DNA of 64,000 bases from a virus (lineage: Duplodnaviria > Caudoviricetes). Positions within the stretch are counted from its first letter, which is position 1. Every line of letters begins with the position of its first letter. Shown piece by piece: positions 12,339 to 39,862 of the stretch. Below the pieces are notes generated by a model. It made no database searches. It worked only from the letters and a program-made list of their open reading frames with translations, and was not told where the DNA came from. Location of the stretch: positions 15,366 to 79,365 of IMG/VR virus record IMGVR_UViG_3300032305_002766. The stretch is one strand, 5' to 3'. Made by a program: the position numbers and the translations under genes.

Positions 12339-12349
12339 TATAAAGATTC

Positions 12350-14242: not shown

Positions 14243-14260
14243 TTTAATTTAAGTTATATG

Positions 14261-14268
14261 TATAAATA
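14261..14268 (-). promoter_or_regulatory. Conserved upstream motif (sense TATTTATA)
   Basis: Exact copy 18 nt upstream of the portal start. Confidence 0.6.
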
Positions 14269-16553: not shown

Positions 16554-16554
16554 A

Positions 16555-17118
16555 TTACCCAATTACACCTGATACTAGTGAATCTAAACTAGCACCTTTA
16601 GCTTTAAATAAATCTTTTACTTCTTGCTTGTTAATAAGACTTTTTAATACTTTTAAATCATCAGATTTAACTCTTTCTGACTTAGGCATGTCTTTTAACT
16701 TATTAACTTTAGCTGTAATGCCTTTTTTTAATTTATCGTATCTTTCTTCTTCAGCTGAAGTAAGTTTTTTAGCATGTTTAGAATTTTTACCTAATTCTTT
16801 TTCTGCTTTTTTCAAATCAGCAGCTGTTGGTTCTTTATCATCGTCATCATCTTCTCCTTCAGGAAGTAAATCAGCTGGGATTGGTTGTTTGGATTGGATG
16901 GCTTTATTGATTTTGGCTTGTCTAGCTTTAGAAGCATTTAAAGATGCAATTGCTGCTTTTTTATTTTCGATATCAGTTGTTTGAGTAACTTTAAGGGTTA
17001 AGTCTTTTACTGTATCATCAATTGCTGTTTTAGCTGCTGTGTTTGCAGCCATATCTTGAGGGGTTAATTCTGCTAGGATAGCTTCGCGAATATATTCTTT
17101 TAATTCAGATTTTTTCAT
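16555..17118 (-). CDS. Hypothetical protein with MKKSELKEYIRE N-terminal leader (putative head cargo)
   Basis: Leader shared with other ORFs; motif CATAAATA (plus strand, 17133..17140) upstream. Confidence 0.65.
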   Translation of the reverse strand: MKKSELKEYIREAILAELTPQDMAANTAAKTAIDDTVKDLTLKVTQTTDIENKKAAIASLNASKARQAKINKAIQSKQPIPADLLPEGEDDDDDKEPTAADLKKAEKELGKNSKHAKKLTSAEEERYDKLKKGITAKVNKLKDMPKSERVKSDDLKVLKSLINKQEVKDLFKAKGASLDSLVSGVIG

Positions 17119-17140
17119 TTTAGAATTTTGATCATAAATA

Positions 17141-17671
17141 TTATAAGGAAAGGGTTTCTTTCACTTGTTTCATGCGTTCTTCAGTTGAACCTTTAATTTC
17201 AATGAAATTTTTAATTTTATGATTATATTTTCGCAACAATGTTTTAATTTCAGTATCAATCTTTTTTCTATATTCTAAATCAGTTGTACGAATACCATTA
17301 TCTTCTACTTCAACACCTTCAGGAGAAACATAAAATAAATAATCATATTCCTGGATAAGGTGGTTTGCAAAATTAGAAAAATCTTCTGCTTGAATGTGAC
17401 TAATTGATGTAGCTGATAGAGCAAAAGCCATAACATCAATTACTGTACGATCAGTAATAATATTTTCCTGCATCAATTCACTAGCACGTTCTGCTAGAAA
17501 AATAGTTTGACCTTTAACCGTTGAGTCTGTATTCAATGGGATACCTAATTCCATTAAATACTTAGAACGCTCTGTTCTAAATGTATAATTCTTAAATTCA
17601 GGTAATTTTTTCAATGCTTTTACAAGCGTTGTTTTACCTACTGACATTGTTCCGCAAAAACCTATCTTCAT
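17141..17671 (-). CDS. P-loop nucleotide kinase (NadR/AAA_28-like)
   Basis: GFCGTMSVGKTT, IITDRTVID, YDYLFYVSP motifs. Confidence 0.8.
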   Translation of the reverse strand: MKIGFCGTMSVGKTTLVKALKKLPEFKNYTFRTERSKYLMELGIPLNTDSTVKGQTIFLAERASELMQENIITDRTVIDVMAFALSATSISHIQAEDFSNFANHLIQEYDYLFYVSPEGVEVEDNGIRTTDLEYRKKIDTEIKTLLRKYNHKIKNFIEIKGSTEERMKQVKETLSL

Positions 17672-17672
17672 A

Positions 17673-17945
17673 TTAAAATCGTGTTGTTCCTTTCATTGAT
17701 GAATTCTTATACCAAGGTAATCCTTCTCTACTTTTAAGAGTTTCTTTATATAATTTCTCAGTATATTTAATCCCATTAAGATAGTATTCTTTTTTCAATT
17801 TACAATCTTTATCAACAGGTTCAATTGCTGGACCATCCCAATTGTGGAGTTTCCAACTTGATTCTCCAAGTAATTTAATGAAATGATGTTTAGCACCATT
17901 CATTTTCATTACTTTTAAGTCATATAGTTTTTCTTTAGTTTCCAT
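17673..17945 (-). CDS. Hypothetical protein (LHNWDGPA motif)
   Basis: 90 aa; KLHNWDGPAIE...EYYLNG pattern seen in small phage proteins. Confidence 0.6.
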   Translation of the reverse strand: METKEKLYDLKVMKMNGAKHHFIKLLGESSWKLHNWDGPAIEPVDKDCKLKKEYYLNGIKYTEKLYKETLKSREGLPWYKNSSMKGTTRF

Positions 17946-17981
17946 ATTGTAAATGTAATAAAAATATTTTAAATATCCTAA

Positions 17982-19295: not shown

Positions 19296-19322
19296 ATTTA
19301 TATTTTAACGTTTAAATATACG

Positions 19323-19360
19323 AAAAAAAAGCTGTGGCTCCAAATTAATGGGCCACAGCT
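19323..19360 (-). terminator. Rho-independent terminator
   Basis: AGCTGTGGC/GCCACAGCT stem followed by a T tract on the minus strand. Confidence 0.7.
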
Positions 19361-19405
19361 CCTAAAATTTTTTAAAAATCGACAGGCTATGAATCTGTCT
19401 GTATG

Positions 19406-19879
19406 TTATAATTTTTTAATATATTGTACTCTATCTCCACGTCCAAAAAGATAATGATCATCAACTAATCCTAACCAAAAGTCATATGAAGTAGTTTTAC
19501 CAGAATTATCTTTAACTCCATTTTCAATAGCTTTATCTAACATATCTTGGGTAAGATTTACTACATATTCATCACCTCCTGAACCATTATCAATAGTAAA
19601 TCCTATTTCATATTTTCCAGGGATTATATCTTCAATGTATGAATTTCTTAAATCTTGATTTTCATTAAGAGATTGGATTTTTTCTTTAGCTTGGGAATAA
19701 TTAAGAGTAACTTTTGTTCCTCTTTTTTTAGAAATTAATTTAATTACATATCCATTATCTGAGAAAACTCGATGTGGTTCTCCCATATACATTACTTCCT
19801 CACCTACTTCAAACATATTTTCAGTTAAAACACGTTTAATTTCTTCTTTAAGAAGAGCTTTAAATTCAGATTTTTTCAC
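19406..19879 (-). CDS. Hypothetical protein with MKKSEFKALLKEE leader (putative head cargo)
   Basis: Leader ends VLTE; an internal SLNE splits two small modules. Confidence 0.6.
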   Translation of the reverse strand: MKKSEFKALLKEEIKRVLTENMFEVGEEVMYMGEPHRVFSDNGYVIKLISKKRGTKVTLNYSQAKEKIQSLNENQDLRNSYIEDIIPGKYEIGFTIDNGSGGDEYVVNLTQDMLDKAIENGVKDNSGKTTSYDFWLGLVDDHYLFGRGDRVQYIKKL

Positions 19880-20142
19880 GATTTATATATTTTTAATCTT
19901 AAGTTTCCTGTTCCTTTAATAACACGATGCCATTCGTGTCTTGGTATAAATATACGTTCTTTTAAGGAGGTAGGCAAATTATTATCTAATTGAAGTTGCC
20001 AATCTGTATCTTCCAAGATTTCAACTATTCTATCCTCATCATCACGATGCCAAAGTAATTCTATTGGATCTATATTTTCGGTAAATTCACGAATAATATA
20101 TTTGTCAGTAACTTCTATGTCGTTGTAGGGTTTACTCATCAT
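19876..20142 (-). CDS. Small cupin-like protein
   Basis: LWHRDDEDR...FIPRHEWHRVIKG cupin-type His motifs; start placed at MMSKPY, overlapping the upstream stop. Confidence 0.6.
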   Translation of the reverse strand: MMSKPYNDIEVTDKYIIREFTENIDPIELLWHRDDEDRIVEILEDTDWQLQLDNNLPTSLKERIFIPRHEWHRVIKGTGNLRLKIYKS

Positions 20143-20791
20143 AGTTAAATTTAGTAGCATTAGCTGCAGTCCATCTATCTTGATTTTCACATATCCATGT
20201 TTTAGTAGAAAATCTAAAATATGGAGTTTTTAAATCCGTTGAAGATGTTTGTGATTGATGCTTCCAAAGTATACGATTATTTGGTTGAGCAGCAAATTGT
20301 CCATTATCTAATTTAATTATATTAAATGATTTATGTTCATTTGGTGTCTCAGCCCATGATATATCTAATTCATTTGGTTCTGAAGAGCAGGAGTCTATTG
20401 TAAAAAGATAATAACCAGGGGCTTTACTTTTATCTTTCATGATGACTTCACATCTTGCATTTCTTAATCTTTGTTTTTTAATAACAGTTATATTATATGA
20501 AAAACAATCCCATAATTGTAACCAATCTAAAGGATATAGTTTATCTTCATTTATATCTGTTTTCCAAACATATGCATGTAAAGGTAATTTATCATATAAA
20601 GCACCATAATCATGAATAAGTGATTCAAAGTATAATGCTTGATTTGGTATTGATTTAGTTGATATCCAATGAGCTGATTCAAATTCTCCTTTTCCAAGAA
20701 ATTTATTATTTTTATCTAACTCAAAGTCATATAAAAATTCTTTTTTTATAAAAACCTCAATTGGGGGGAGATTAGCTACTAAATAACTCAT
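20132..20791 (-). CDS. Hypothetical phage protein
   Basis: 219 aa with aromatic-rich globular composition (LQLWDCFSY, GQFAAQPNNRI). Confidence 0.7.
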   Translation of the reverse strand: MSYLVANLPPIEVFIKKEFLYDFELDKNNKFLGKGEFESAHWISTKSIPNQALYFESLIHDYGALYDKLPLHAYVWKTDINEDKLYPLDWLQLWDCFSYNITVIKKQRLRNARCEVIMKDKSKAPGYYLFTIDSCSSEPNELDISWAETPNEHKSFNIIKLDNGQFAAQPNNRILWKHQSQTSSTDLKTPYFRFSTKTWICENQDRWTAANATKFNYDE

Positions 20792-21108
20792 TTTTTATCT
20801 CTAATTAATAATTCACCTAGTACTTCTAAACGACCCACTTCTCTTTGAAATTCAATTGGTGTCATATTCAAAGATATTTTTTTTAATGTTTTTTCAAATT
20901 CTTTTTTAGATGCTTCTTCATCAAATTTACCTTCAGTAGCTTTTTTATAGTATGGAGCTTTAACTTTAAAATGATGCCAAGTTAAAAGTGCTAAACCGCC
21001 TTTTTCTTCAGCGTTTGCTGCTATTTTAGCCGCACCTTCACCACGTTTTTTAGCAAATTCTTCAAAAGTTTCTTTTGCTTCTTTTAATAGTTCAAGTAAA
21101 TTTATCAT
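20788..21108 (-). CDS. Hypothetical protein with MINLLELLKE leader
   Basis: Start overlaps the upstream TGA (ATGA); LxE leader. Confidence 0.6.
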   Translation of the reverse strand: MINLLELLKEAKETFEEFAKKRGEGAAKIAANAEEKGGLALLTWHHFKVKAPYYKKATEGKFDEEASKKEFEKTLKKISLNMTPIEFQREVGRLEVLGELLIRDKK

Positions 21109-21530
21109 TTTGTTTTTCCCCATTTTTTACCTTTTCCAGGTGTTTTACATTGTGATGCTGTAGGGCGGCATGAAGGATATTTAGCACGTTTTTCGCCTTT
21201 TTGACGACCACAAGATTTATATCCTACTATTTTACCATCTTTTCTAATAGGAGAATTACAATCTACCCAACCTCCTGTTTTACCAGGTGCTCCTTGACGT
21301 TTGAACCATTTACGTAAAGATTCATCTTCTTTTATTATAGTAGAAATGGTTTCTCTTAATTGACTTTCTTTAACGCTTTTCCAAATTTCTCCTTTACGAC
21401 ATCTAACTACAGCTCCTGATTTGTAAGCTGAAGGTTTGTCAAATTTACGATCAGCAATACGTAAACATCTGTCTCGTTTAACCTTCTTTTCTTGAAGGAC
21501 CTCACTAATAATTTTTTTCAATTTATCCAT
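21105..21530 (-). CDS. Basic, Cys-containing two-module protein
   Basis: MDKLKKIISEVLQE leader; modules DRCLRIADRKFDKPSAYKSGAVVRCRKG and ESLRKWFK...WVDC...CGR...YPSCRP. Confidence 0.65.
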   Translation of the reverse strand: MDKLKKIISEVLQEKKVKRDRCLRIADRKFDKPSAYKSGAVVRCRKGEIWKSVKESQLRETISTIIKEDESLRKWFKRQGAPGKTGGWVDCNSPIRKDGKIVGYKSCGRQKGEKRAKYPSCRPTASQCKTPGKGKKWGKTK

Positions 21531-22210
21531 CACCAAAATCCTGAAAATGAAGATTTTAATCCAAGTAATTTAGCATATCTAGGTAATCTACAGCTCCAGT
21601 ATGAAGCTTTAGTTCTATCTGTTTTTTGAGAACATTTATGGCGTTTAGCAAATGCTGCTCTTGCTTTTGGATTATTAATTTTAGCAGACATACCTGCTTG
21701 ACCAAATGATACTTTTTTAATTCGTTTAGTTTTAGGATTACGAACATAAACATAAAACTTTTTAGAACCCCCACGCATTGGTTTTCCAATTGGTGGGTTT
21801 TTCTTTTTAGGTTTTGATTTAGCTTCGTCTAATTCCTCTTCAATTTCTTCAAAAATATAATCTAATGGAACTTTTTTATTTTCATAAATAGCAAATTCAC
21901 CTAAATTAGTTTCAGTTAAAATCTCTAAATCATCACCTGTAAAGTTTAAAATACCTCTAGAGTATAATGATCTTGCTTCTGCCCATAAATTAAAATAACT
22001 TTGGGATCCAGCACGATAAACATGTTCAGTAAGTGGTTTTTTATTATCTAAATGATATTTTAATCCTTCAGATAGTATTTCACGTGGAGCTAAACTTTCA
22101 TTTAAAACAATTGGAGCTTTAGTTTTTCCACATTTGTCTCCACATCCGCAACCACAATCTGTGGTTTTAGATTCTAATACTTCTCTAATTAATTGGTGTA
22201 AGTTTTCCAT
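21530..22210 (-). CDS. Two-module protein with a basic C-terminal domain (DUF6321-like, from memory)
   Basis: MENLHQLIREVLE leader; C-terminal RGGSKKFYVYVRNP...KKVSFG...ARAAFAKRHKC...ASYWSCR. Confidence 0.65.
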   Translation of the reverse strand: MENLHQLIREVLESKTTDCGCGCGDKCGKTKAPIVLNESLAPREILSEGLKYHLDNKKPLTEHVYRAGSQSYFNLWAEARSLYSRGILNFTGDDLEILTETNLGEFAIYENKKVPLDYIFEEIEEELDEAKSKPKKKNPPIGKPMRGGSKKFYVYVRNPKTKRIKKVSFGQAGMSAKINNPKARAAFAKRHKCSQKTDRTKASYWSCRLPRYAKLLGLKSSFSGFW

Positions 22211-22211
22211 A

Positions 22212-23324
22212 TTATCTAAGTACAATTTGGGGATTTGTATTATCCCATTTATATCCTAAAGTAGGTGCTTTAACTACAGTATCAATATACCCTGCATTTA
22301 CTACTTCAGAAAGTTTATCAACATCTATTAATACATAATCACCACTTGATGAATTAAGCATTAAAAAAGAATCTACGTTATTTTTAGAAGCATAAGAAGC
22401 AGCATTTAATTCTAGGATTTTTTTCTTCATATCCTCTAAATTTTGAAAATCTGCAGGACCATTAAAGAATTTACTAGCTAATCCTTGATTAAAATATATT
22501 TGATCAAGAATTTTTTGAATATATGAAATTACTTCTTCGGATTTATACCCGTTTTTAGTTGCTCTTTCATATATATCTTTTAAAGCATAGTTGATATTTC
22601 CATTGCTAGGTTCAGAAAGAAATTCTTCTAATTCTTCTCCATCTAAAAATTTATCTCCTATAATTTCTAAGTAATTAGTAGAACTACCTCTACCACCTTG
22701 TTGACCAAATCTACCACCTGTTCCTTTAACCTCAAGGTTTTTACCATTGAAATTTAAGTCACCACCACCGCTTCTATTATCAACATCTTTAAAAACTAAT
22801 GCTAAAAATACTTCGGCTTTACCGATAGAAGAACCACTTGCATCTAGGCCTGGTTCTATGTTAATAAGATCTTTTACTAGTTGGTCTGAGAGTCCAGTTA
22901 CTTGAGCTAGATTACCTTTATCACTTGCTCCTTCAAGGGATTTAGGTTTTTTAAGGTAATCTATAAGTTCTTTAGTTTCGGTATCTGTTAATTTATCTAA
23001 GATATATTCTAAAGACGATTCTTTTGTTTTAAAACTTTCAGGAGTATATCCTTTTTGATTTAAATATGATTTTAATTCACCTCTAGATCCCGAACCGGAA
23101 ATGCTTTTAAACAGCTTTTTAAGGGTTTCATCGGGGATATCGGATGATTTTATTAAATCGATGAGTTTATTTTTTAAATCTTCTTCTTCGGGGTTTTCAT
23201 CGGCCTCTAATATATTGTTAACCATTTCAAATAACATTTTTTTATCCTCAGGGCTACCCATATCAGGATATCCTTTAGGAAATTTATAAGCTACATTATT
23301 TATGATTCTATCAAAAACGTTCAT
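22212..23324 (-). CDS. Hypothetical protein with a possible PD-(D/E)XK nuclease motif
   Basis: SIGKAE...GGGDLNFNGKNLEVKGTGG; N-terminal segment ends ILE|AD. Confidence 0.5.
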   Translation of the reverse strand: MNVFDRIINNVAYKFPKGYPDMGSPEDKKMLFEMVNNILEADENPEEEDLKNKLIDLIKSSDIPDETLKKLFKSISGSGSRGELKSYLNQKGYTPESFKTKESSLEYILDKLTDTETKELIDYLKKPKSLEGASDKGNLAQVTGLSDQLVKDLINIEPGLDASGSSIGKAEVFLALVFKDVDNRSGGGDLNFNGKNLEVKGTGGRFGQQGGRGSSTNYLEIIGDKFLDGEELEEFLSEPSNGNINYALKDIYERATKNGYKSEEVISYIQKILDQIYFNQGLASKFFNGPADFQNLEDMKKKILELNAASYASKNNVDSFLMLNSSSGDYVLIDVDKLSEVVNAGYIDTVVKAPTLGYKWDNTNPQIVLR

Positions 23325-23803
23325 TATGCTGGGGTTTCTTCTGCTGGTGTTTCTTCTTCCTCTGGTGGGGTTGTTTCCTCACCTGCTGCTGCTTCTTCAC
23401 CTTCAACTTTTGGTTCTTCTTGAATACCATATGCTAATAATCGAGAGATAGCTTCGGCAGCGGATTGTTCTTCACCAAGATTTAATAAATAATATTTTTT
23501 ACCTTCTACTTGTGCAATCCAACTTCGTTCGGTATAAATTAACATAAAATTTTCCATATTGCCTAATACAATACGAAAAGTTGTTGGACGAGGAGCTACC
23601 CATTGTATATCAGTCATGAATACCTCATACTGATTTGTAAGTAGATCAATAATGACTTTTTTAAGTTGTGGAAATTTTCCTAATACAGGAAATTTATCGG
23701 CATCAAGAGATATTTCTTCTCCTTTATCAATATCAACTTGTTTTTCAGCATATGATTGCTTAACAATTGATTTAATTTTATCTCTTAATTCACTTTTATT
23801 CAT
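23324..23803 (-). CDS. Hypothetical protein with MNKSELRDKIK leader and acidic tail
   Basis: 159 aa; leader resembles the MKKSEL family. Confidence 0.65.
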   Translation of the reverse strand: MNKSELRDKIKSIVKQSYAEKQVDIDKGEEISLDADKFPVLGKFPQLKKVIIDLLTNQYEVFMTDIQWVAPRPTTFRIVLGNMENFMLIYTERSWIAQVEGKKYYLLNLGEEQSAAEAISRLLAYGIQEEPKVEGEEAAAGEETTPPEEEETPAEETPA

Positions 23804-23821
23804 TATTCAGACTTTAACTTT

Positions 23822-24658
23822 TTAGCTAATTTTTTCAGCAATTGATCCTGTTTTCTTTTTAGCTTGAGAAAATTTTTCAATACTAGCAATATCCATTATT
23901 CTACCATCTTCATGTTTAAAAAACTTTTCTTTAGTTTTTTTATCTATTTGGATGGGATAATCTTTTCCTTTATAAGTATAAGTATCTGTAGTTACTTCGT
24001 AATTAGTACTTATAGGATTTAGTGAAGATGTTGAGGTAGAAGTTTTAGTAGAAGTAAACCTACCTTTTTCATCTCTTGCAGGAGTTGATTTAGGTGTAGA
24101 TGTAGGTTGAGATGTTGGTTGAGATGTTGGTTGAGATGTTGGTTCTTCTTGGGCAAAAACTTTACCTGCTGCGATTGCTGTGTTGGCTTGGCTAGTTTGA
24201 TTTAATAATCTTTTATAAGCATCAATAGTTTGTTGAATTTCTTTAGGAGCTTTATTTAATGATGTTTGAGGAAATAATTTATTTATATCGTTTACTACAT
24301 CAGCAAGTTCTTTTTCTAAGGTTTTAGCTTTTTGTCCTAATTTAGCCATTCCTGCTTCTAATTTAGGATTTTTTAAATCTTTACCCATAAAAGATCTACC
24401 TATATTCCCTAATCCTGTTCCTACAAAAGCACCAGCACCTTTAGTTTGAGCTTTTAATCTATCTAAAAAACCCTCAGATACTTTATCAACTAATTCTTCT
24501 TCTTTTATATGTTTTTTTAATTTTTTAACATATTTTTCTCTACCTTTTTCTAAACTTTTAGTTAGTTTAGCAGGTTTGTCAGAAGGTTTAGATTGTGGGC
24601 GACCATATTTTTGTAAATTGGTAGCTAAAGCGTACTTTAATCCTTCTTTATCTTCGGC
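23822..24658 (-). CDS. -1-frame continuation of the 24637..25734 gene (includes the 23822..24388 ORF)
   Basis: The frame is open for 90 extra codons upstream of the ATG at 24388 with no ATG/GTG/TTG, reading AEDKEGLKYALATNLQKYGRP...HIKEEELVDKVSEGFLDRLK. It starts right at a 10-A run. Confidence 0.65.
   Translation of the reverse strand, partial: AEDKEGLKYALATNLQKYGRPQSKPSDKPAKLTKSLEKGREKYVKKLKKHIKEEELVDKVSEGFLDRLKAQTKGAGAFVGTGLGNIGRSFMGKDLKNPKLEAGMAKLGQKAKTLEKELADVVNDINKLFPQTSLNKAPKEIQQTIDAYKRLLNQTSQANTAIAAGKVFAQEEPTSQPTSQPTSQPTSTPKSTPARDEKGRFTSTKTSTSTSSLNPISTNYEVTTDTYTYKGKDYPIQIDKKTKEKFFKHEDGRIMDIASIEKFSQAKKKTGSIAEKIS
24099..24144. repeat. 12-bp tandem repeat (~4 copies) encoding QPTS
   Basis: GATGTTGGTTGA units on the plus strand; protein EEPTSQPTSQPTSQPTS. 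Confidence 0.9.
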
Positions 24659-25734
24659 TTTTTTTTTTCTTCCATCATTGATGGTTTACCTGTTATATCA
24701 TCGATAAAAGCATCTACTTTAGGTTCTGCTAATTCAAATTCTAAATAATGTTTAGCACTTGATATCATAGTTTTAGCAGTAGTAATTTTTGATTGCCACC
24801 AAGCTGGGAGATCAATTTCACCACCTCTTTCTTCTAATTCATCCATAATACTATAAAGCATCATAGAATATTTTCCTATTTTATATAGTTCTGATTTGAT
24901 ATGGTGTGGTTCATTATCTTCATGACCTAAGTCGATATCCTCTGTGTACATATCTTTTGGGAATTCAATACCTACAGAATAATTTTGAGGCATAAGATCA
25001 TCAAATTTACCTTCTAATCCTAAAGCTTTTAAAGCATCTTTAATATCTTTGTAAGTATAAGGTTCTTTTAAATTAATTTTAACACCTTGTTTTTGAAGTG
25101 ATCTTACTAAATCTTCGGGAGCTTGAAATTCTCTAATTTCACCTTTTGCTTTTTTAATGATGGATTTTTGCAAAGCATCAGGTAATTTTTTCTGTTTACC
25201 TTTTAATGCTGGGTTATTGTCGTATTCTTTAGAAAATGAAATGGCTTCTTTCATTTTAAGTTTATCGTCAGGAGCATATTGATTGTAAAGTGTTTTAGCA
25301 TCTTCACCGTATCCTAAATCAACCAATTGTTTTACTACACTACCAATTTTTTTATCATATAATGAACCTGCAAGGAATGATCTATTATCATCGGACATAT
25401 AGTAATACCAATCGAATCCTTTTAAAAGAGATTCTAATCTATTCATCAAGGCAGATGCTTGAGATAAGTCTTGCTCATCTTCATATCTATCGGCACCAAC
25501 TTCAACATCCATTTCTTGCATTAGAGATTTTCTAACTAATTCTTTGATACGAGTTTTATGAGTATTTTCTTCCATTTCTACTGCTTTTTTAGCTGCGTTT
25601 ATTGCTTTTCCAATAACAACCCTTTCAGCCTCTTTCCCATAAGTCTTAACAAGCTTACGCTTGTTTTTCTTAATCATGTTCCTTTTAATTTGAGCACTTT
25701 TATTAAGTACTTTAGGGGAAAGTTCGTTTTCCAT
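24637..25734 (-). CDS. Modular hypothetical protein (putative head cargo)
   Basis: 365 aa; modules bounded by LMQE, MKE, IRE, YTE, MMEE; ends in a slippery A run. Confidence 0.7.
   Translation of the reverse strand: MENELSPKVLNKSAQIKRNMIKKNKRKLVKTYGKEAERVVIGKAINAAKKAVEMEENTHKTRIKELVRKSLMQEMDVEVGADRYEDEQDLSQASALMNRLESLLKGFDWYYYMSDDNRSFLAGSLYDKKIGSVVKQLVDLGYGEDAKTLYNQYAPDDKLKMKEAISFSKEYDNNPALKGKQKKLPDALQKSIIKKAKGEIREFQAPEDLVRSLQKQGVKINLKEPYTYKDIKDALKALGLEGKFDDLMPQNYSVGIEFPKDMYTEDIDLGHEDNEPHHIKSELYKIGKYSMMLYSIMDELEERGGEIDLPAWWQSKITTAKTMISSAKHYLEFELAEPKVDAFIDDITGKPSMMEEKKKPKIKKD
24658..24668 (-). promoter_or_regulatory. Slippery site GAA AAA AAA AAG (A-AAA-AAG heptamer), candidate -1 frameshift
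   Basis: Ten consecutive A on the sense strand (T 24659..24668); a -1 slip joins the two open frames. Confidence 0.5.
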
Positions 25735-25904
25735 TATTTTTTATCTTCGGTGATTGATGCTTTTTTATATTCAGCAACCAATTTTTTAATTTCACCTAAT
25801 ACTTTACGAGCACGTCCGTGAGCTGCTTTTGAAGTTCCAGCATGTTCTGCTTTAAATGATTCGTAAAGTGCTTCAATTTTTTCAAAAATTTCTGTTGTAT
25901 TCAT
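25734..25904 (-). CDS. Histone H1-like (Hc1-type) small DNA-binding protein, below the ORF-track cutoff
   Basis: 56 aa MNTTEIFEKIEALYESFKAEHAGTSKAAHGRARKVLGEIKKLVAEYKKASITEDKK; the KAAxxRARK...KxS pattern recalls Bacteroidota Hc1-like proteins; TAATG stop-start overlap. Confidence 0.7.
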   Translation of the reverse strand: MNTTEIFEKIEALYESFKAEHAGTSKAAHGRARKVLGEIKKLVAEYKKASITEDKK

Positions 25905-25923
25905 AATTTTTATTATTTATAGA

Positions 25924-27390
25924 TTATTTATTTAATTTAGTCCACATTGGGAACGTAACTTCTTTAATTTTCATAGAAGATTCTTTTTCATCACCTTCAG
26001 CTAATCCTGGTTTTTCAACTACGTGGGTACGAGTAAAGAATGTAATTGTATTACCAATTTGATCCATTAATTTTTTATCACCTAATTGTTCAGCAGCTGC
26101 TTGAGCTTGTGTCAAAGCATCTTGTACTGATTTTACATTTGGATCAACTTCGGCGGTAGTCATTGTATCTGTTACTTCAACATCTTCTGTACCTTCAGGA
26201 GTTTCAATTTCTGCATCTGCTGTTTCAGTATCAGTTGCTTCAGCGTCTACTTCCTCATCTGCTTCATTTAAATTTCCTAATTTTTTAACAGCTTTTACTA
26301 AAAGATCATATGCTTGTTTAACTTCTTTAGAATCGTATAATTCTGCATGATATTCATCATATAAAAGAAGATCAAGTGCTTTAAGAAATGAAGCAATACG
26401 AGCTGGTTTTGCAGTTTCAAATTCATCTGCTTCGTTCATAAAATCATATAAACTATTTTCTTTTGATGGATTCTCAACATCAAGTTCAACTTCTGCTAAA
26501 ACCATTTCTTTGATTTTAGCTTTTAATTCTGATACTTTCATTTTCTTTTTTTCTATTTCTTCGCCTTTTTTAACACCAGCTCCGTATACATCTTCTTCGC
26601 CTTTGTTTTTAGCTACTTTGTTCTTTTTTCCTTTTGCTACTCGTTGAAATTCAGTGTCACCTTCTTCTAATGTTCTCATATTAGCATATACTTCTTGGGG
26701 TGTAACGGAGGCATTTATAATATTTCCCTCTGAATCGATGAAGTAACTTCCTCCCTCAGTTGAAAGGATTTCATCTCCTTTTATTATATCTAAATCAAAG
26801 GATGATGGTTCAACTGAACCTGGGGTTACGGTAAATTTTATATTTTCTTTGTCCGACATGTAGTCAGCAAATCTTTTAGCTACGTTAGCTGTTTCTTGTG
26901 TATTTAATGTAGGTTTTTCCATTTTTTCTTGTAGATATTCATCATCTCTATCTCCCGTGATATAATCATCATCATCTTCTTCACCAGCATACCATGATTG
27001 ATTAGGATCATTTGGTGCTTCTTCAGTAAAATCATGCATTTTCCAGTTAAAGTTAGGATTAGTAACTAATGCCGGATATAAAATTCCTTTTTTTCCTGAA
27101 AATGCTAAACTGATTCCTTCTGATCTATCTGGGTTAGCCATGCCATTCATTTGGGCTAATAATTCGTAATAATCTTTACCACCAAAATCACCATACCCTT
27201 CATAATTTTTTTCTAACCATTTATTACCTTTGTTGTCAAACATATAAACAGCACGAAGTGTGTTTTCAGGTTCAGAACCAATTTGTTGGTCTGTATCCTG
27301 GGTAAACCATGAAAATTGACCTTCGGTCAATGAGGAATGAAATGTTGCTTTATTTTCTAATATAGCTTTTCTAAGATCGAATTTTTTCAT
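25924..27390 (-). CDS. Modular acidic hypothetical protein (putative processed head cargo)
   Basis: 488 aa; segments separated by ILE, LTE, LQE, LEE, LAE, MNE, LNE, LAE. Confidence 0.7.
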   Translation of the reverse strand: MKKFDLRKAILENKATFHSSLTEGQFSWFTQDTDQQIGSEPENTLRAVYMFDNKGNKWLEKNYEGYGDFGGKDYYELLAQMNGMANPDRSEGISLAFSGKKGILYPALVTNPNFNWKMHDFTEEAPNDPNQSWYAGEEDDDDYITGDRDDEYLQEKMEKPTLNTQETANVAKRFADYMSDKENIKFTVTPGSVEPSSFDLDIIKGDEILSTEGGSYFIDSEGNIINASVTPQEVYANMRTLEEGDTEFQRVAKGKKNKVAKNKGEEDVYGAGVKKGEEIEKKKMKVSELKAKIKEMVLAEVELDVENPSKENSLYDFMNEADEFETAKPARIASFLKALDLLLYDEYHAELYDSKEVKQAYDLLVKAVKKLGNLNEADEEVDAEATDTETADAEIETPEGTEDVEVTDTMTTAEVDPNVKSVQDALTQAQAAAEQLGDKKLMDQIGNTITFFTRTHVVEKPGLAEGDEKESSMKIKEVTFPMWTKLNK

Positions 27391-27404
27391 TTTTGGGTAT
27401 ATGT

Positions 27405-27412
27405 TATAAATA
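27405..27412 (-). promoter_or_regulatory. Conserved upstream motif (sense TATTTATA)
   Basis: Exact copy 14 nt upstream of the start at 27390. Confidence 0.6.
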
Positions 27413-27414
27413 TG

Positions 27415-28638
27415 TTATTTTTTAAAATTACTTTTAAGTTTTCGTAATATAGTTTCAGCTAATGTATTTTCGTACCCTGAGTCATAATCATAATCATCAT
27501 CTTCACCAATATTCCAATCATCAATTTCAATATCTTGAGAATTTAAATCATAAAAGAAATCATAGATATCTGATGGAGTGTTTGAAGCATATAAAGTATC
27601 ATCGTATTTTTTAATATCAAAATTATCTCTATATTCGTCATATGTACCTATTGCTTTACGAGCATCTCTGTTTGATACTTTAACGAAATATTTTTCATCA
27701 ATTTCACCACCCATACCTTCTTTTATATTGGGGTTATCGCCTAACGCAAATTTTTCGTAATTTTGTAAATCGTTATAATATTTAATTTGATGTTTTTTAC
27801 CATCTGTATCAATACCATAAACTATTGCATCAAATTTACCCATTCCATCATCACGTTTACCTGAGAGGAATTGTCTTAGTGATGATTTAGCACGTGCCTT
27901 ATTAATGAAGGATAATTGTTCTTCTTTAATTTCTTCAGTAGCACCTACAATTTCTTCGTAATCATCCATTTGTAAGATACCTCTTTCTTTACCTAATTTA
28001 TTTGCTTTTTCAGTAACGTCATGTAAATCTAAATCTTGTTCAGCATCTTCTCTAGCATATTCCAACATACGAAGGAATAAAGGAATATCCATTGTAATTG
28101 TATCAACGGCATCTTCTTCTTTAGCTTCTAATAAGTTCTTTTTAAGATAAGAAGCGTCAATGTCAATTTCTAAACTAACATTTCCTTCTTTGGCTTTTTC
28201 GTTATGAGGTTTGATAACAAGTTTACCAACATTGTCTTTTACCTTCATTACTTTCCAATCTTCACCATCCTTAAATTTAAGGATATCACCAACTTTATAA
28301 TCAGAAATAGATTTAGATTCATATGCTGTTGTCATAGCTTCATTTATACCTTGGAAATTAGTTGTTCTAAGAGCTTGCATGATAGCATATACAGCATCTT
28401 GTTCTGAGTAATCATAGTGATTGGCAAGGGCTTTAATAAATCTATTTACTTTATTAATTACTTCTGGGTTTATACCTTCATTTAGGTTTGAAATTTCATC
28501 TCTAACCCATTCTTTTTCATTTGGACCTAATTGATCATAATCCATACCAAACTCTTCGTTTGCTATTTCATCATATATATCTCTTTCTTCTTTTAAAGGT
28601 TTAGAAAAGAATTCTTTAATTTTTTGTAAATCTTTCAT
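27415..28638 (-). CDS. Modular acidic hypothetical protein (putative processed head cargo)
   Basis: 407 aa; segments separated by LKE, LNE, INE, LLE, IKE, IKE, LAE. Confidence 0.7.
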   Translation of the reverse strand: MKDLQKIKEFFSKPLKEERDIYDEIANEEFGMDYDQLGPNEKEWVRDEISNLNEGINPEVINKVNRFIKALANHYDYSEQDAVYAIMQALRTTNFQGINEAMTTAYESKSISDYKVGDILKFKDGEDWKVMKVKDNVGKLVIKPHNEKAKEGNVSLEIDIDASYLKKNLLEAKEEDAVDTITMDIPLFLRMLEYAREDAEQDLDLHDVTEKANKLGKERGILQMDDYEEIVGATEEIKEEQLSFINKARAKSSLRQFLSGKRDDGMGKFDAIVYGIDTDGKKHQIKYYNDLQNYEKFALGDNPNIKEGMGGEIDEKYFVKVSNRDARKAIGTYDEYRDNFDIKKYDDTLYASNTPSDIYDFFYDLNSQDIEIDDWNIGEDDDYDYDSGYENTLAETILRKLKSNFKK

Positions 28639-29261
28639 TTGGTTGATTTTAAATAATCAGTTAGTAGTGAACCAATAGCCCCTACTTTCTGTCTTATAAA
28701 TATCCATTCTTCTCTGGATAATTTATGTTCTTTATCATTAAATGCTATTCCCATTACTCCTATAAAATGTTTATCTAAATCATCTATAGCAATCATGTAA
28801 AATGATTTAGTACCATAATCACGAGCAAAAATACTCAAATCATATGTTTCATCAGTGTTATAATTAACAACAGCTAATTCACCATCTTTATAAAGTTTAG
28901 ATAATGCTTTAGGGAATAAAGATACAGGGATTTGTTGAAAAATATGTTGGATAGTTCCAGTATTAGGAGTGATTTTTTCGTAAAAAAGAGAAAATTTCTG
29001 AATGGATTTCCCTGTAGGGAAAAAATGACCACCATTGTGGAATTGACCTATCCAAATACGATCACATTCTATTTCTTCCATAATCTGATCTAGTTGTTTA
29101 TCAACTAGTTCATTTAAGTCAATGGCTTCTTTTACTGGGGATAGTTTTTCAGTTTTAGATTGTTTTTCTAATTTATTTTTAAACCAAGTTATGATTAAAG
29201 GCCCTACTACAGTGGTAATAAGAGCAACAGCAATCGTTGTAATTGTTGCTAAAATTGTCAT
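28635..29261 (-). CDS. Membrane protein with a GAF-like soluble domain (T4 holin T-like architecture)
   Basis: Single N-terminal TM helix, then DRIWIGQFHNG...YMIAIDDLDKHFIGVMGIAF with GAF-type topology. Confidence 0.5.
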   Translation of the reverse strand: MTILATITTIAVALITTVVGPLIITWFKNKLEKQSKTEKLSPVKEAIDLNELVDKQLDQIMEEIECDRIWIGQFHNGGHFFPTGKSIQKFSLFYEKITPNTGTIQHIFQQIPVSLFPKALSKLYKDGELAVVNYNTDETYDLSIFARDYGTKSFYMIAIDDLDKHFIGVMGIAFNDKEHKLSREEWIFIRQKVGAIGSLLTDYLKSTK

Positions 29262-29830: not shown

Positions 29831-30099
29831 TTGTTTGCTGCTGTTATTGGTTTCTGTAATTTAATTATTGCTTTCATTTTATATTTCCCAGCAATGTTTT
29901 TAATTTTTTTAGAAACCGTATCTGCCCCGGATCCATTTAAATCTACAACTAAAGTATCTTCTTTAATAGGTGATTTAATCACTCTATGTTCTAATTCACT
30001 ATAATTTGTTGTAAAAAAACTACTTAGAAAATAAGTACTAAGATCAACATTGGTTTTCTCTACTTCATTTCCGCTAATAACTACTCTTCTAAAGGCCAT
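29827..30099 (-). CDS. Hypothetical protein
   Basis: 90-aa ORF with a 4-nt overlap to the next gene. Confidence 0.55.
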   Translation of the reverse strand: MAFRRVVISGNEVEKTNVDLSTYFLSSFFTTNYSELEHRVIKSPIKEDTLVVDLNGSGADTVSKKIKNIAGKYKMKAIIKLQKPITAANK

Positions 30100-30126
30100 A
30101 TTTTATTGTTTTGATTAGGTGTAAAT

Positions 30127-33100
30127 TTAATGACCCTTTTTGGCTTTTCCAAGTTCTTCCAATGGTAATTTTGGAGAAGTGGTTTTAAAATCTCGTTTAC
30201 GCATAACAGTTTTAGCAACTAAATCCATTTCATCATTTTTAGCATCGTAATTTAATGCAAATGGTAAATTGATACTAGTACGTAAATCGTTTAATACGGC
30301 TTCAAAATTGTCAGGGAAATCAGATAATTTCTTTCCATATTTTTCGGCTGTTTTGATAAATAAATCTTCAAGTTCTTCAGCTGAGATAGGTTTTCCATTA
30401 CGTGGATCATTTACTCTTTCAAGAAAATGGTAAGTAAATTCTACATCAATGCCGTAATCCTCAAACCACTCATCTGCTATTTTTTCGATTTGATTTAAAT
30501 CGCTTCTAGTTATTTCTTCTTTTAATTCTTGAACTAATTCACGAGCATATTCTTTTAAACCAAATGGGTCTGATTTTGGGGTATTATTGTGCCAGCATTT
30601 ATGGCAAGTAAATAAATCGTTTCCTCCATCTTTTATAGCCCATTTCCAACCACATTTATCACATATAATATCAGTTGCAGTCATTAATTCTTTTACAGGA
30701 GCAAACCCTGAACCATAAGGTAAGGCTGTACCTGCTTGTGGGTCAGATGCTTCTTTCATTTTATTTAAACGTTGTGTCTTCTTTTTAGACATTTCTTTAC
30801 GTTTTTCAATATAATCTAAAGCACGTTTTAATCTTGATTTCACTTCAGGATCTTTTGCTTTACCATAAGCTGCTCTTACTCGTTGGTGAATTAAGTTAAT
30901 TACTTGAGATTGACGAGCGTGTGCTTTAGATTTAAATGATTTTTTATTTAAAGTATCAACGATATCTTCTTTGGTTTTAAATTTAACTCTAACTGTATCT
31001 GATGGATCTTCATCTGTGTATAATCTACGACCTGATCCTTTAGGTTTTTTACCTGTTCCTTTTTTAGGATCATTTTCTGGGATTATTAGTTCGTTTAGGT
31101 TTTCTATGTCTGTAGGGTATGATTTGGTTTTAGAATAAAATTCTATCATCCATGGTAATTGTTTCCATGAGTCTACTCCGTTAGGTGTTTCAGCATCAAA
31201 ATATTTACCTTCATATTCAACCCAAACATGTCCTAATGTATTATTTCTAGAATCTTCTGTACTCATTATTTTAGAGCCAGGTAAATATTTACTTAAATTT
31301 TTAGCAAAAATATCACAGAAACCATTATTACATTCTTTTCCTCCAAATTTATCCCAATTTTTATATGTTATTTTTAATGCATCTTTTTCTGTTTGGGATA
31401 ATGCTTTTTGATGTATATTCAATTCTGCTACTATAGCATTACCTGGGAAGTAGGTTATTATATTCTCGCCTTGTTGTTTAATTTTAGCATCAGGAAATAC
31501 TTTTAATATAAATGCTTTATATAAATTATCTCTTTGGTTACTAAAATCTTCTTCGCTTGATTTTTTAGAAGGGGAGTATAAAATTGCTTTAATATCTCCT
31601 CTATACTGTCTTAAATAATGTTTAATAATATTCGTTATTGTAGACATTACTCTATATAGTTCTCCTTTATTGACTACTATTTTTGAAGATGAACCCTCAG
31701 CACCTTTAGGTTTTGCTAAAAATTCAATATCCATAGCTTCCATAGACATATCCTCATCTTCAGGATCGTCAATTTCGATATGTGTTAAATCTACCTCATA
31801 TTTGGTTTCGGAAGGTGTGGTAAATTCTATAGAAGTAACTCGACCACTACTATCAACTTCTGTCCACTTATAAGGTTCAAGATTAGCTTCACCTACTTCA
31901 TTTATTGGGAAGAATTTATCTTTAAATTTAGAAGGATATGTTGAAAATTTACCTTTACTTAAAAAATTAGTTAGTGTACCTAATAATGTAGTTCCTGAAA
32001 TTCCTAAAATGGGAATAGCGCTCATTTTGAATATGTCTACAACATTACGATGTAACTTTTCTTTTTCTTCAGGAGTTAATTCTTGTTTTTTAATATATTT
32101 GGTAAATAATTCTTTAAATCCTTTAAAATCACCTGTTTGATCTTTATAAGCTGATTTGAAAGTGGAAATTAGGTTTTTAGTTTTATCTAAAATCCCTTCG
32201 TCTAATTTAGTTTTACTATCTGACCATTTTCTAAATTCAATATTACCATTTAGATAGGCTTCTTTTTCTATAGTTTCTAAATAATCGTCTTCATTTGTAT
32301 TAGTAGTATTAATATCACCATTACCTATTCTACCTTCAAGATTTTGTATATGATGGATCATTTCATGAGAAAATGAACGTACAATATCTTTTGGATGACG
32401 ACCATAAGTGTAAAGTACAATTAATTTATCATTAGGATTATAATATGCTGTTTTACCAAAAAAGTCTTCAGCATTCTTACTATCATCATGTATAAATTTT
32501 ACTTTAGGCAAAGGACGAATATTCATACCTTTATCTAACATGTATTTTGTTAGATCTTGTATTTTTTCTTTATAATCTGTGTTTATTAAATTTTCTTGTA
32601 AAGGTAAAGATAAAGCTTTAGCTCTTTGTTTCCATAAATCTAAAATATTATTTCTATCTTTTTTATTTAATCTTACTTTATCAAAATAATCATTAATTAC
32701 ATCTTTAAAAGGTGTTTTTGATTTTTTAGCTTTCAAGTACATACCTTGAAGCATAGCATCTACCTCTTTTTCTAATTTAAAGTATTCTGATTTAGGTAAA
32801 ACTTTTAAAGCAATTAAATTTCGTAAAATTTCATCATCTTCCATTTCTTTAGACGAAATTACATTAGACCCGGCTTGAGTTAAATGTTCAATTTCATGTC
32901 TAACAACATCTATTAGATCATTATATATGGTTTCCCATTTTTGAGGTAAATCTCTAGGATCTACTTGGAATTTAATTTCTAAATATGCTGGGGTTCTTAA
33001 TGGATCTGCTCCTCCATCTACTCTATAAACTTCTGTTTTTGTTTCTTTAACATTTAAAGTAGCATAAAGTTCAAAGTTAATAGATTGACCTTTAGAATTT

Positions 33101-33789
33101 TCGGATTCATAATCCTCATTATATTCTAAAAGTTCAGGAGTACCATCATATTGACTTTTCCAATCATTAATTATATCTTTAACAATCATTCTTGTTAATG
33201 AATCATAACGACCTTCATTGATGGTTTCTTTTCCTTCTAATAGATCCTTAAGTTTAATAATAACATTTTGAGGAGTATCTATTAAAATCCCAATCCCACC
33301 TGCTTGTTCAAAAGCTCTAATGTTTTCGGGTTTATCATCAATTAATACGGAATTTGGTGTAGCCCATAATGCTTTTTCTTTACCATTTTTGGACCAATTC
33401 ATTGGTAATGAACCTATATTTTTTGTAACCCATTCTGTTTTACCATCAATGGGAGCATCAAAAAATCTTCTACCAGTTAATTCTTTATTTGCTTTAGATA
33501 ATTCAGGAACAGCAGAAAGTATTTCAACTTTATTGAAATTATTTTTAGCAAAATCAACCATTTCTTTAGCTCCTGGAATGATAGGGGCATTAAGCCAATA
33601 ATCTAGATTTTCAACTGTATCTTGAGGTTTGATTTTTCTATCTTCACCAGTTTCAGGATCCTTAATAAACGTAGTTGCTAAATTTTGAGTGTAGTTTGAT
33701 AAAGTATCATCTACATCAAAATAAATAATATAGTCTCGATTATCTTCTTCTAAAAGATCCTCCAATAAGAATTTGGTAAGCAAATCCAT
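30127..33789 (-). CDS. Multi-domain polyvalent protein: HAD nucleotidase, two HExxH metallopeptidase-like modules, Cys-His-Asp hydrolase, Zn ribbon, RelE-like C-terminus
   Basis: FDVDDTL...LIDDK (HAD); HEIEH; HEMIH...E; NNGFC...GHVWV...YFDAE; CDKC...CHKC; HFLERVND...AKTVMRK. Each module is bounded by [LIVM]xE. Confidence 0.8.
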   Translation of the reverse strand: MDLLTKFLLEDLLEEDNRDYIIYFDVDDTLSNYTQNLATTFIKDPETGEDRKIKPQDTVENLDYWLNAPIIPGAKEMVDFAKNNFNKVEILSAVPELSKANKELTGRRFFDAPIDGKTEWVTKNIGSLPMNWSKNGKEKALWATPNSVLIDDKPENIRAFEQAGGIGILIDTPQNVIIKLKDLLEGKETINEGRYDSLTRMIVKDIINDWKSQYDGTPELLEYNEDYESENSKGQSINFELYATLNVKETKTEVYRVDGGADPLRTPAYLEIKFQVDPRDLPQKWETIYNDLIDVVRHEIEHLTQAGSNVISSKEMEDDEILRNLIALKVLPKSEYFKLEKEVDAMLQGMYLKAKKSKTPFKDVINDYFDKVRLNKKDRNNILDLWKQRAKALSLPLQENLINTDYKEKIQDLTKYMLDKGMNIRPLPKVKFIHDDSKNAEDFFGKTAYYNPNDKLIVLYTYGRHPKDIVRSFSHEMIHHIQNLEGRIGNGDINTTNTNEDDYLETIEKEAYLNGNIEFRKWSDSKTKLDEGILDKTKNLISTFKSAYKDQTGDFKGFKELFTKYIKKQELTPEEKEKLHRNVVDIFKMSAIPILGISGTTLLGTLTNFLSKGKFSTYPSKFKDKFFPINEVGEANLEPYKWTEVDSSGRVTSIEFTTPSETKYEVDLTHIEIDDPEDEDMSMEAMDIEFLAKPKGAEGSSSKIVVNKGELYRVMSTITNIIKHYLRQYRGDIKAILYSPSKKSSEEDFSNQRDNLYKAFILKVFPDAKIKQQGENIITYFPGNAIVAELNIHQKALSQTEKDALKITYKNWDKFGGKECNNGFCDIFAKNLSKYLPGSKIMSTEDSRNNTLGHVWVEYEGKYFDAETPNGVDSWKQLPWMIEFYSKTKSYPTDIENLNELIIPENDPKKGTGKKPKGSGRRLYTDEDPSDTVRVKFKTKEDIVDTLNKKSFKSKAHARQSQVINLIHQRVRAAYGKAKDPEVKSRLKRALDYIEKRKEMSKKKTQRLNKMKEASDPQAGTALPYGSGFAPVKELMTATDIICDKCGWKWAIKDGGNDLFTCHKCWHNNTPKSDPFGLKEYARELVQELKEEITRSDLNQIEKIADEWFEDYGIDVEFTYHFLERVNDPRNGKPISAEELEDLFIKTAEKYGKKLSDFPDNFEAVLNDLRTSINLPFALNYDAKNDEMDLVAKTVMRKRDFKTTSPKLPLEELGKAKKGH

Positions 33790-33791
33790 TA

Positions 33792-34157
33792 TTATTTAAG
33801 CTTTTGGATTTTTTCTTTTGCAGCTGCTTTCTTTTCTTCAATATCTTTTTTAGCACCACGGAAAGCTTCCATTGCCTCTTCCATTTCTTTAAGCTGCGAT
33901 TCATATTCCATGAAAGCTTCATTAGCATGACGATTAGCCTCAGAGCGGTTTTTATAAACACCTTTAGTTTCCTCCATTTTGATTTCGTCAAATACAGTAG
34001 CTTCGCAAACCATTCCTTCTTTAGTCATACCTTTACCAGGTTTTTTAACTACGAAAAATTTACCAATTTCATCTACTACAGTTGGACTATCCTCTTCTTT
34101 AATGGATTTTTTATCTTTTTTTTCTTCTACTTCTTTAAGTAAGTCTAATAATTTCAT
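33792..34157 (-). CDS. Hypothetical protein with MKLLDLLKE leader
   Basis: 121 aa; motif GATAAATA (plus strand, 34180..34187) upstream. Confidence 0.65.
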   Translation of the reverse strand: MKLLDLLKEVEEKKDKKSIKEEDSPTVVDEIGKFFVVKKPGKGMTKEGMVCEATVFDEIKMEETKGVYKNRSEANRHANEAFMEYESQLKEMEEAMEAFRGAKKDIEEKKAAAKEKIQKLK

Positions 34158-39842: not shown

Positions 39843-39862
39843 TATAATTTTATTATTTTTTA

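Follow-up and report, generated by a model that had tools for sequence, protein, structure and literature searches.

Conserved N-terminal leaders on unrelated genes upstream of the terminase of a T4-type phage: candidate capsid-targeting propeptides

Introduction

Why do otherwise unrelated proteins, encoded side by side near the packaging genes of a T4-type phage, share their first 10 to 20 residues? The question is raised by a 64,000-nucleotide stretch of IMG/VR record IMGVR_UViG_3300032305_002766, called here the window, which takes up the end of a linear viral contig of 79,365 bp (CheckV completeness 49%). The phage is uncultured and comes from water, and its nearest cultured relative is Flavobacterium phage vB_FspM_immuto (immuto below). 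About 10 otherwise unrelated genes, most of them in an array of about 18 kb upstream of the terminase, start with a short conserved helical tag of one of three kinds, named here leaders A, B and C. All three end in hydrophobic-hydrophobic-x-Glu (h-h-x-E), as do the likely capsid propeptide junction and the N-termini of the protease and the scaffold. The reading that we favour, with about even confidence and by sequence and analogy, is a T4-like head-cargo system in which the leaders serve as capsid-targeting propeptides, the three classes being specific to the clade. What was observed is the existence of the leaders, their modularity, their clade specificity, their conservation at the protein level and a T4-like register or ending, together with a head machinery of the T4 type and a late-type promoter motif that leader genes and head genes have in common.

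A preliminary description of the window had proposed a single shared leader throughout the array. Three distinct classes, perhaps four, take its place, together with ordinary N-terminal helices such as that of the terminase. The N-termini quoted there are all present, on the minus strand, and the bodies behind them are indeed unrelated, forming separate clusters at the BLASTP level. Leaders do occur along the array, but it is not homogeneous: about half of its 22-26 genes are leaderless, and three of these encode ordinary enzymes (an AAA_28 kinase-like protein, a flavin adenine dinucleotide (FAD) oxidoreductase and phrog_3704). The loose motif used to define the leader, [LIV]xE within the first 20 residues, is at chance level (10/26 array genes and 15/53 others, about 28% being expected from composition). 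It is present in the terminase too, in a helix whose homologue in T4 gp17 is internal (residue 108). The stricter definitions given below, by contrast, are found well in excess of chance.

Leader C has the register of the T4 targeting sequence

Leader C has 10 residues, M-x-x-h-x-x-h-h-x-E, in the register of the T4 capsid-targeting sequence (CTS) MKTYQEFIAE. In T4 IPIII, targeting depends on residues 4 and 7 of this sequence and processing on residues 8 and 10 (PMC9026906). The pattern was taken from published mutational data on T4 and not from the window sequence, and the T4 tag was verified in T4 DNA. Among 89 candidate starts in the window there are four matches against 0.14 expected (P ~1e-5), an excess that supports the capsid-targeting reading, and all four are in the array (4/22 versus 0/57, P 0.005). 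The loci of 81 relatives have 17 matches (2.6 expected), on at least eight body families and with a recurrent MIKLxxILxE, and immuto has six (0.5 expected). T4, the positive control, has five against 0.6 expected: IPII, IPIII, gp24, Alt and gp61.1. No enrichment was found in Syn9 (2 versus 0.35 expected, one being UvsX) or HTVC008M (1 versus 0.36). The heptad h-x-x-h-h-x-E, ending within the first 22 residues, is found in nine window genes against 2.0 expected, six of them in the array. The genes concerned are listed below; a slash marks a putative junction.

20788-21108, minus strand: 106-amino-acid (aa) basic protein, leader C MINLLELLKE/A at 21079-21108 (pattern match; ATGA overlap with the upstream stop codon)
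21105-21530, minus strand: 141-aa very basic Cys-rich protein, leader C MDKLKKIISE/VLQE/KK at 21501-21530 (DUF5872-like, isoelectric point (pI) 10.3)
21530-22210, minus strand: 226-aa basic Cys-rich protein, leader C MENLHQLIRE/VLE at 22181-22210
30127-33789, minus strand: 1220-aa multi-module protein, leader C MDLLTKFLLE/DLLEE at 33760-33789
33792-34157, minus strand: 121-aa protein, C-like leader one residue shorter, MKLLDLLKE/V at 34131-34157 (heptad ends at residue 9)

The starts at 21108, 21530 and 22210 are internal Met codons of the longest open reading frame (ORF); each overlaps or abuts (ATGA or TGATG) the stop codon of the gene upstream, and for that reason they are taken as the likelier starts. 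The three small leader-C proteins are basic (pI 9.3-10.3), as the T4 internal proteins are, and most leader-A and leader-B proteins and the large proteins are acidic. Orthologues of 20788-21108, whose body has a pI of 9.3, start with MIKFQDILNE, MIKLINLINE or MRLLELLRE; an ESM Atlas look-up of this protein gave no usable match. Some orthologues of 21530-22210 carry leader C (MKDLKELIRE, MDKIKKLIKE) and others begin directly at the CxCGC motif, so the leader appears to be a facultative module.

Immuto encodes the modules of the 1220-aa protein as separate genes, the C-terminal one (aa 1097-1211) being a stand-alone leader-A gene there. In the window protein a degenerate A-like helix ending in LVQE precedes the same module, and the N-terminus gives a weak NT5C match. 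The protein has five h-h-x-E sites where about 10 are expected, which is no enrichment; this count lends no support to the presence of such a site at each module boundary.

Related starts were seen in other phages. T4 gene 61.1 (NC_000866 18966-19130) encodes a 54-aa hypothetical protein starting with MKTFKEFIKE, close to MKTYQEFIAE in register and residues; it is the only one of the five T4 matches that is not a known head-core protein. Paralogues of Microcystis phage Mel-JY01 at 60276-60926 and 62056-62718 start with MIKLKSLLQE and MIKLMSLVTE. The MIKL-type 10-residue leader thus reaches this more distant T4-like cyanophage, but leaders A and B do not.

Leaders A and B

Leader A has 20 residues, M-K-K-S-E-[LF]-K-x-x-I-K-E-E-I-x-E-I-L-[SA]-E. 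A position-specific scoring matrix (PSSM) for it was built only from 33 distinct leaders of relatives. At a threshold of >=10 bits it finds five N-termini in the window, where shuffles give 0.005 expected per genome, and a six-frame hidden Markov model (HMM) search confirms four of the matches.

16555-17118, minus strand: gene nearest the terminase, leader A MKKSELKEYIREAILAE/LTP at 17059-17118 (PSSM 38 bits, HMM E 2.4e-9)
19406-19879, minus strand: 157-aa protein, leader A MKKSEFKALLKEEIKRVLTE/N at 19820-19879 (PSSM 31 bits, HMM E 1.6e-4)
23324-23803, minus strand: 159-aa acidic protein, A-like in its first half only, MNKSELRDKIKSIVKQSYAE (PSSM 18.6, HMM E 5e-4)
25734-25904: N-terminus matched by the leader-A matrix (PSSM 13 bits)
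48767-49111, minus strand: 114-aa protein, A-like 28-aa helix MKTTELKNLIKSAVKEAIQEELKEILLE/A (PSSM 15-20 bits, HMM E 0.02)

In the 16555-17118 protein the leader is followed by a middle that varies, then by an acidic linker and, at the C-terminus, a conserved coiled-coil hairpin. Its 56 distinct orthologues have the same 20-residue leader with codons that vary synonymously, which points to conservation of the peptide and favours a targeting function. An AlphaFold2 (AF2) model from a 63-sequence alignment (predicted local distance difference test score (pLDDT) 78, predicted template-modelling score (pTM) 0.37; domain packing not reliable) has a helix at residues 3-17 and then a break. The leader helix of this model ends at residue 17, the predicted cut, in keeping with the capsid-targeting reading. 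A region-limited search of residues 1-40 against a set of 5.8 billion proteins returned close orthologues only.

Because it opens the late operon to which the terminase belongs, 16555-17118 was also considered as the small terminase subunit. hhalign against T4 gp16 gave a probability of 0.1, a profile search of PDB sequences gave generic coiled coils only, and Pfam and PHROGs gave nothing. The assignment was rejected because there is no likeness to small terminases and the same leader is found on other genes.

The 19406-19879 gene has a GTG start overlapping the upstream stop codon (GTGA). Its body has no relatives in the fetched loci, and an AF2 model from the single sequence (pLDDT 36) was unusable. 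The 48767-49111 gene is outside the array and is the first gene of the baseplate-wedge operon, a position, just upstream of a gp25-like gene, that is kept in relatives.

Leader B is M-x-N-F-D-L-[KR]-K-[YF]-L-[AV]-E-[NG]-K-L. The 81 loci of relatives have 15 copies, every one of them N-terminal, on at least 10 unrelated bodies; the window has one (27390). The gene next to that one has a fourth conserved N-terminus.

25924-27390, minus strand: 488-aa acidic protein, leader B MKKFDLRKAILE/NK at 27355-27390
27415-28638, minus strand: 407-aa acidic protein, fourth conserved N-terminus MKDLQKIKEFFSKPLKE at 28588-28638

The 25924-27390 protein also has an internal copy of leader A, KMKVSELKAKIKEMVLAE/VE, at aa 284-303 (26482-26541; PSSM 23 bits). 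Its orthologues in loci L024, L059 and L061 consist of leader B, a variable N-domain, the internal A helix and a conserved C-domain; in the L051 orthologue the A helix is near the N-terminus. Leader-like helices inside proteins, at module joints, were found in this protein and its orthologues, in L059, in L009 and in the 1220-aa protein. The 28638-type start (MKDLRKIQEFFSKPI, MEDLKKIQEFFSKPI) heads fusion proteins P0034, P0052 and P0075, which end in a DUF5872-like module.

Modularity and clade specificity

Leader A is found on at least 12, leader B on at least 10 and leader C on at least eight unrelated body families, as expected of a transferable tag. The A and B HMMs match the window genome, three near-complete relatives and immuto, which was also counted in favour of the capsid-targeting reading. 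They have no match in Mel-JY01, Syn9, HTVC008M, RM378 or P-SSM2; in T4 the A model has none and the B model one chance-level match, in vs.1. The restriction to the clade and immuto means that these leaders are not a general property of AT-rich phage proteomes. Upstream of the terminase, each near-complete relative has a cluster of 2-3 A and 1-2 B leaders; a few C leaders are present as well. In immuto, whose host is Flavobacterium sp. LMO8, candidate leader genes are at record positions 102294, 102880 and 113188 for A, at 1803, 103806, 117637 and 118632 for B, and at 24569, 103366 and 109856 for C. With T4 itself giving five matches to the leader-C pattern, the "greatly expanded" system of the preliminary description is not borne out.

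The DUF5872-like module of 21105-21530 has 849 representative homologues. It is fused to many other modules seen in the array, and zinc-ribbon and other modules recombine widely. An h-h-x-E helix precedes the module in 72/81 cases when it is N-terminal versus 32/57 when it is internal (P 2e-5). To see whether leaders on the module go with a nearby T4-type head module, 80 viral loci were compared: 26 have a T4-type terminase, portal or protease within 10 kb, the rest being uninformative. The module itself, basic and Cys-rich with the signature DRC[LKT]RIA.RKYD..PSAY.SGA, is fused to very many N-terminal modules.

The head-maturation genes of the window

The called genes are nearly all on the minus strand, with the exception of a few short plus-strand ORFs. 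Portal and terminase (12350-15837) are directly downstream of the array and are followed by the genes for the prohead.

14269-15837, minus strand: large terminase (58% identity to immuto, 26% to T4 gp17)
12350-14242, minus strand: T4-type portal, gp20 homologue (PF07230)
9396-10004, minus strand: prohead protease, gp21 family, Peptidase_S77 (PF03420, E 1.3e-29)
6748-8031, minus strand: gp22-like acidic scaffold, MKSNRDLLKE/AIADAKAVKE/..., between protease and capsid genes (pI 4.3)
4948-6714, minus strand: major capsid protein, gp23 family (PF07068, E 6e-75)

T4-type prohead machinery, a gp22-type core with a gp21-family protease, is therefore present, as the capsid-targeting reading requires. 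The protease has about 35% identity to T-even gp21 (tblastn), and its N-terminus, MKQVLIE/T, parallels MNEPQLLIE/T of T4 gp21, again in favour of that reading. The capsid protein has a likely propeptide junction, ...NQAKQLVTE/SNE, at the place of ...FLTE/AEIGG in T4 gp23. The junction, which ends in h-h-x-E, is kept in 21 relatives and is followed by a variable Gly-rich stretch. The scaffold has many h-h-x-E sites, the N-terminal one being LLKE/A, and its N-terminus is kept in relatives and immuto. The preliminary description had seen similar starts outside the array, in the scaffold and at 49111. The latter is an A-like helix; the scaffold does start with an h-h-x-E site but has no leader A, B or C.

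Gene order is shared with immuto, in which primase, exonuclease and a block of hypothetical genes are followed by terminase, portal, protease, scaffold and capsid. At the nucleotide level (megablast) the array matched no cultured phage. IMG/VR holds hundreds of contigs with terminases 77-94% identical, some of these contigs being 135-170 kb long.

A separate resemblance was seen within the head module. The protein at 10911-11462 (minus strand) carries SGFTSGGEGENHNGP, which resembles YYTSGGQGENWAG just past the likely cleavage site of the capsid protein (4948-6714), and the resemblance holds in relatives too.

A promoter-like motif before leader genes and head genes

The motif ATATTTAT[AG] has 18 copies on the coding strand versus two on the other, 15 of them intergenic and 6-66 nucleotides (nt) before a start.

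17133-17141, 19945-19953, 27405-27413, 28695-28703 and 49117-49125, minus strand: copies before leader genes
62247-62255, 55895-55903, 54301-54309, 51732-51740, 39835-39843, 14261-14269, 12331-12339 and 1824-1832, minus strand: other copies

It precedes portal, head, baseplate and fibre genes as well as the genes at 16555, 19406, 25924, 27415 and 48767, in line with expression of the tagged proteins together with the virion. The distance upstream is 74 nt for 19406, 23 nt for 25924, 65 nt for 27415 and 14 nt for 48767. Four of the five clear A/B genes have the motif versus 11 of 74 others (P 0.004). The motif stands before 54/69 leader-A genes, 50/57 portal genes and 146/806 other genes of relatives, counts dominated by one orthologous gene. 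Because of the genes that it precedes, the motif is probably the late promoter of the clade. The T4 late promoter sequence TATAAATA was also tried and has no strand or intergenic bias here.

In some relatives only 3 nt separate the end of the motif from the ATG, and the mRNAs would then be leaderless or nearly so. GC-rich hairpins with T-runs are found on the minus strand at about 19324-19360 (gctgtggc...gccacagc TTTTTTTT) and about 54310-54345 (aagccggg...cccggct TTTTTT); both were seen by eye and were not listed by an automated terminator scan. Lying right before promoter-like motifs, they are likely terminator-promoter junctions, which would close a transcription unit from about 27413 to 19406.

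A capsid-targeting model and its alternatives

According to the favoured model, the tagged proteins would be made late in infection, alongside the head genes. The N-terminal amphipathic helix would bind the scaffold core of the assembling prohead, and the shell would then close around the tagged proteins. The gp21-family protease would cut after the terminal h-h-x-E, leaving the mature bodies free inside the head. At the next infection these would exit along with the DNA, to serve early on in host takeover or in countering defences. The helix copies at the joints of 25924-27390 and the 1220-aa protein would be cut sites that separate modules after loading. Core binding, cleavage, presence in virions and ejection of the tagged proteins are here inferred from T4 by analogy. 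The capsid-targeting cargo system of the preliminary description accordingly is supported as far as the T4 head set, the modular clade-specific leaders and the h-h-x-E ends are concerned, but its packaging and cleavage steps are conjectural. A broader version, which we consider unlikely, is multi-tag addressing in abundant aquatic T4-like Bacteroidota phages: three leader classes would load a changeable cargo of about 10 proteins, and helices serving as protease-cut joints would let modules be fused, split and swapped as cassettes. The classes would then perhaps go to different places or stages of the prohead core.

A number of observations weigh against a head address. A literature search found no virion proteome of immuto or its relatives. 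The T4 register is not shared by leaders A and B, nor do these have sequence homology to the T4 tag. Most tagged bodies are acidic, unlike the T4 internal proteins, and some orthologues have no leader. The sequence h-h-x-E is a frequent end of any Glu-rich amphipathic helix, and in the terminase the helix is structural. In the DUF5872-like family the helix also stands before internal modules (the 32/57 given above), where it could be the first helix of the module or a linker. Orthologues of 23324-23803 keep M[TKN]KxEL[KR]xKI[KR] and not the terminal h-h-x-E, and this leader may be an ordinary N-terminal helix. The A-like helix of 48767-49111 heads a gene of the baseplate operon and misfits a purely capsid role. 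Mimicry by leader A of a conserved scaffold helix, MSEDDLKKFIEDVI, was tried as well; 53% of shuffles reach the score with the window scaffold and 0-30% do so in most relatives, and the resemblance, being short of significance, was set aside.

The leaders might instead be ordinary first or linker helices of shuffled small modules, without any address function, their likeness arising from a Lys/Glu/Ile/Leu-rich proteome and distant shared ancestry of the modules. We judge this, the main alternative, somewhat unlikely. It would account for the DUF5872-like helix, which with the poly-Lys after it precedes the core in N-terminal and internal modules alike, for the internal copies in 25924-27390, L009, L059 and the 1220-aa protein, for the structural helix of the terminase and for the 23324 family, which keeps its helix without a cleavage-type end. 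However, the same leader stands on bodies without detectable similarity and is gained and lost inside orthologous families. It is also commoner at true N-termini (89% versus 56%), its conservation stops abruptly at h-h-x-E, the 7-residue pattern is at least 40-fold rarer internally than at N-termini, and in T4 the pattern picks known cleaved head proteins. The gain and loss among orthologues and the preference for N-termini were counted in favour of capsid targeting.

That the leaders are recognition tags for another partner, whether a modifying enzyme, a chaperone or each other through helix-helix pairing, is improbable in our estimate. A constant tag on variable bodies is also typical of recognition sequences like those of ribosomally synthesized and post-translationally modified peptides (RiPPs), and leader A, with its length of 20 aa, lies outside the T4 register and heads a baseplate-operon gene too. 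Yet no modifying enzyme is linked to the array, and its leaderless enzymes (kinase-like, FAD oxidoreductase) have no known tag-dependent chemistry. A radical-SAM enzyme was considered as the partner and rejected: there is one such gene per near-complete relative, far from the array (tens of kb away in immuto and three relatives), and none in this contig. This gene encodes about 260 aa (immuto W02:30766-31029; G001:36050-36307; G002:84031-84288; G003:64008-64262) and is probably QueE-like, a label given because 7-deazaguanine DNA modification has been reported for immuto. Far less credible still is a likeness produced by constraint on the translation start or by composition, with A-rich first codons giving MKK in a host group without Shine-Dalgarno sequences. 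Many leaders do start with ATG AAA AAA, the genome has 31% G+C and the loose motif is at chance. Against this, conservation extends to residue 20 with helical periodicity and synonymous codon variation, the A and B HMMs find nothing in five other AT-rich T4-like genomes, and the five leader-A starts compare with 0.005 expected from shuffles.

Comparison with known systems

The closest parallel to the proposed capsid targeting is the T4 CTS, which gp21 removes from IPI, IPII, IPIII and Alt. The T-even internal proteins have only the targeting sequence in common (PMC3012670). Both systems have gp20, gp21, gp22-like and gp23 machinery, and in both a short N-terminal tag stands on otherwise unrelated, non-essential-looking proteins, some of the cargo candidates here being small and basic. 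Leader C has 10 aa with hydrophobic residues at 4, 7 and 8 and Glu at 10, and A and B only end in the same heptad. However, none of the leaders has sequence homology to MKTYQEFIAE, the likeness of leader C being one of pattern. There are three classes here, two of them longer (12-15 and 20 aa), and copies also lie within fusion proteins. The bodies are often acidic or large, reaching 1220 aa, and the genes are clustered just upstream of the terminase. The T4 tag has been studied by experiment, the leaders by sequence. The propeptides of T4 core and shell proteins (gp24, MAKINELLRE/; gp67, gp68, gp21, gp22, gp23) have counterparts in the h-h-x-E sites at matching places of the window protease, scaffold and capsid protein. 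Such proteins, though, are essential parts of the structure, with conserved N-termini of their own and no leader A, B or C.

Polyvalent proteins combine disparate modules in one polypeptide, and their packaging and injection have been predicted (Iyer, Burroughs, Anand, de Souza and Aravind 2017; PMC5512222). Encoded beside virion genes and made of modules that relatives have singly or in other combinations, the 1220-aa protein has the look of this class, which was counted in favour of capsid targeting. That class is defined by domain content and not by an N-terminal tag or protease joints, however, and the domain matches here are weak (NT5C, YunG-like, DUF5872); no MuF, portal fusion or metallopeptidase family match was recorded.

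In giant phages many head-internal proteins lose propeptides C-terminal to Glu at a short motif (PMC9026906). Phages phiKZ, 201phi2-1 and SPN3US, with gp21-related proteases, are similar in having processed inner-body and ejection proteins whose propeptide is cut after Glu; they are of a very different lineage and no common transferable leader has been described for them. Their cleavage logo is small residue-x-Glu, unlike h-h-x-E.

Other genes of the window

Between the leader-A gene and the terminase, at 15839-16562 (minus strand), are two small membrane or signal-peptide proteins of 142 and 123 aa with coiled-coil middles. One or two such genes are in the same position in relatives L009, L024, L051 and L059 and in Mel-JY01, a placement that is odd for lysis-type proteins. 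Five tRNA genes (Arg-TCT, Met x2, Trp, Gln) are at 62266-63845 (minus strand), at the upstream end of the window.

Significance

The preliminary description had suggested that the leader could be a programmable packaging tag. Tag-directed packaging of foreign proteins has long been established for T4 (PMC3012670, PMC9026906), so the idea itself is not new, but with further tags the delivery of proteins by phage capsids could be carried over to chassis other than coliphages. If the capsid-targeting reading is true, the T4 principle extends beyond the T-even coliphages to a widespread environmental lineage on Flavobacteria and their relatives. A sequence rule, M-x-x-h-x-x-h-h-x-E with two longer tags, would then predict injected proteins in metagenomic phages, prime candidates for a role in counter-defence or host takeover. 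The presence of a block of fast-shuffling unknown genes beside the packaging genes would be explained too.

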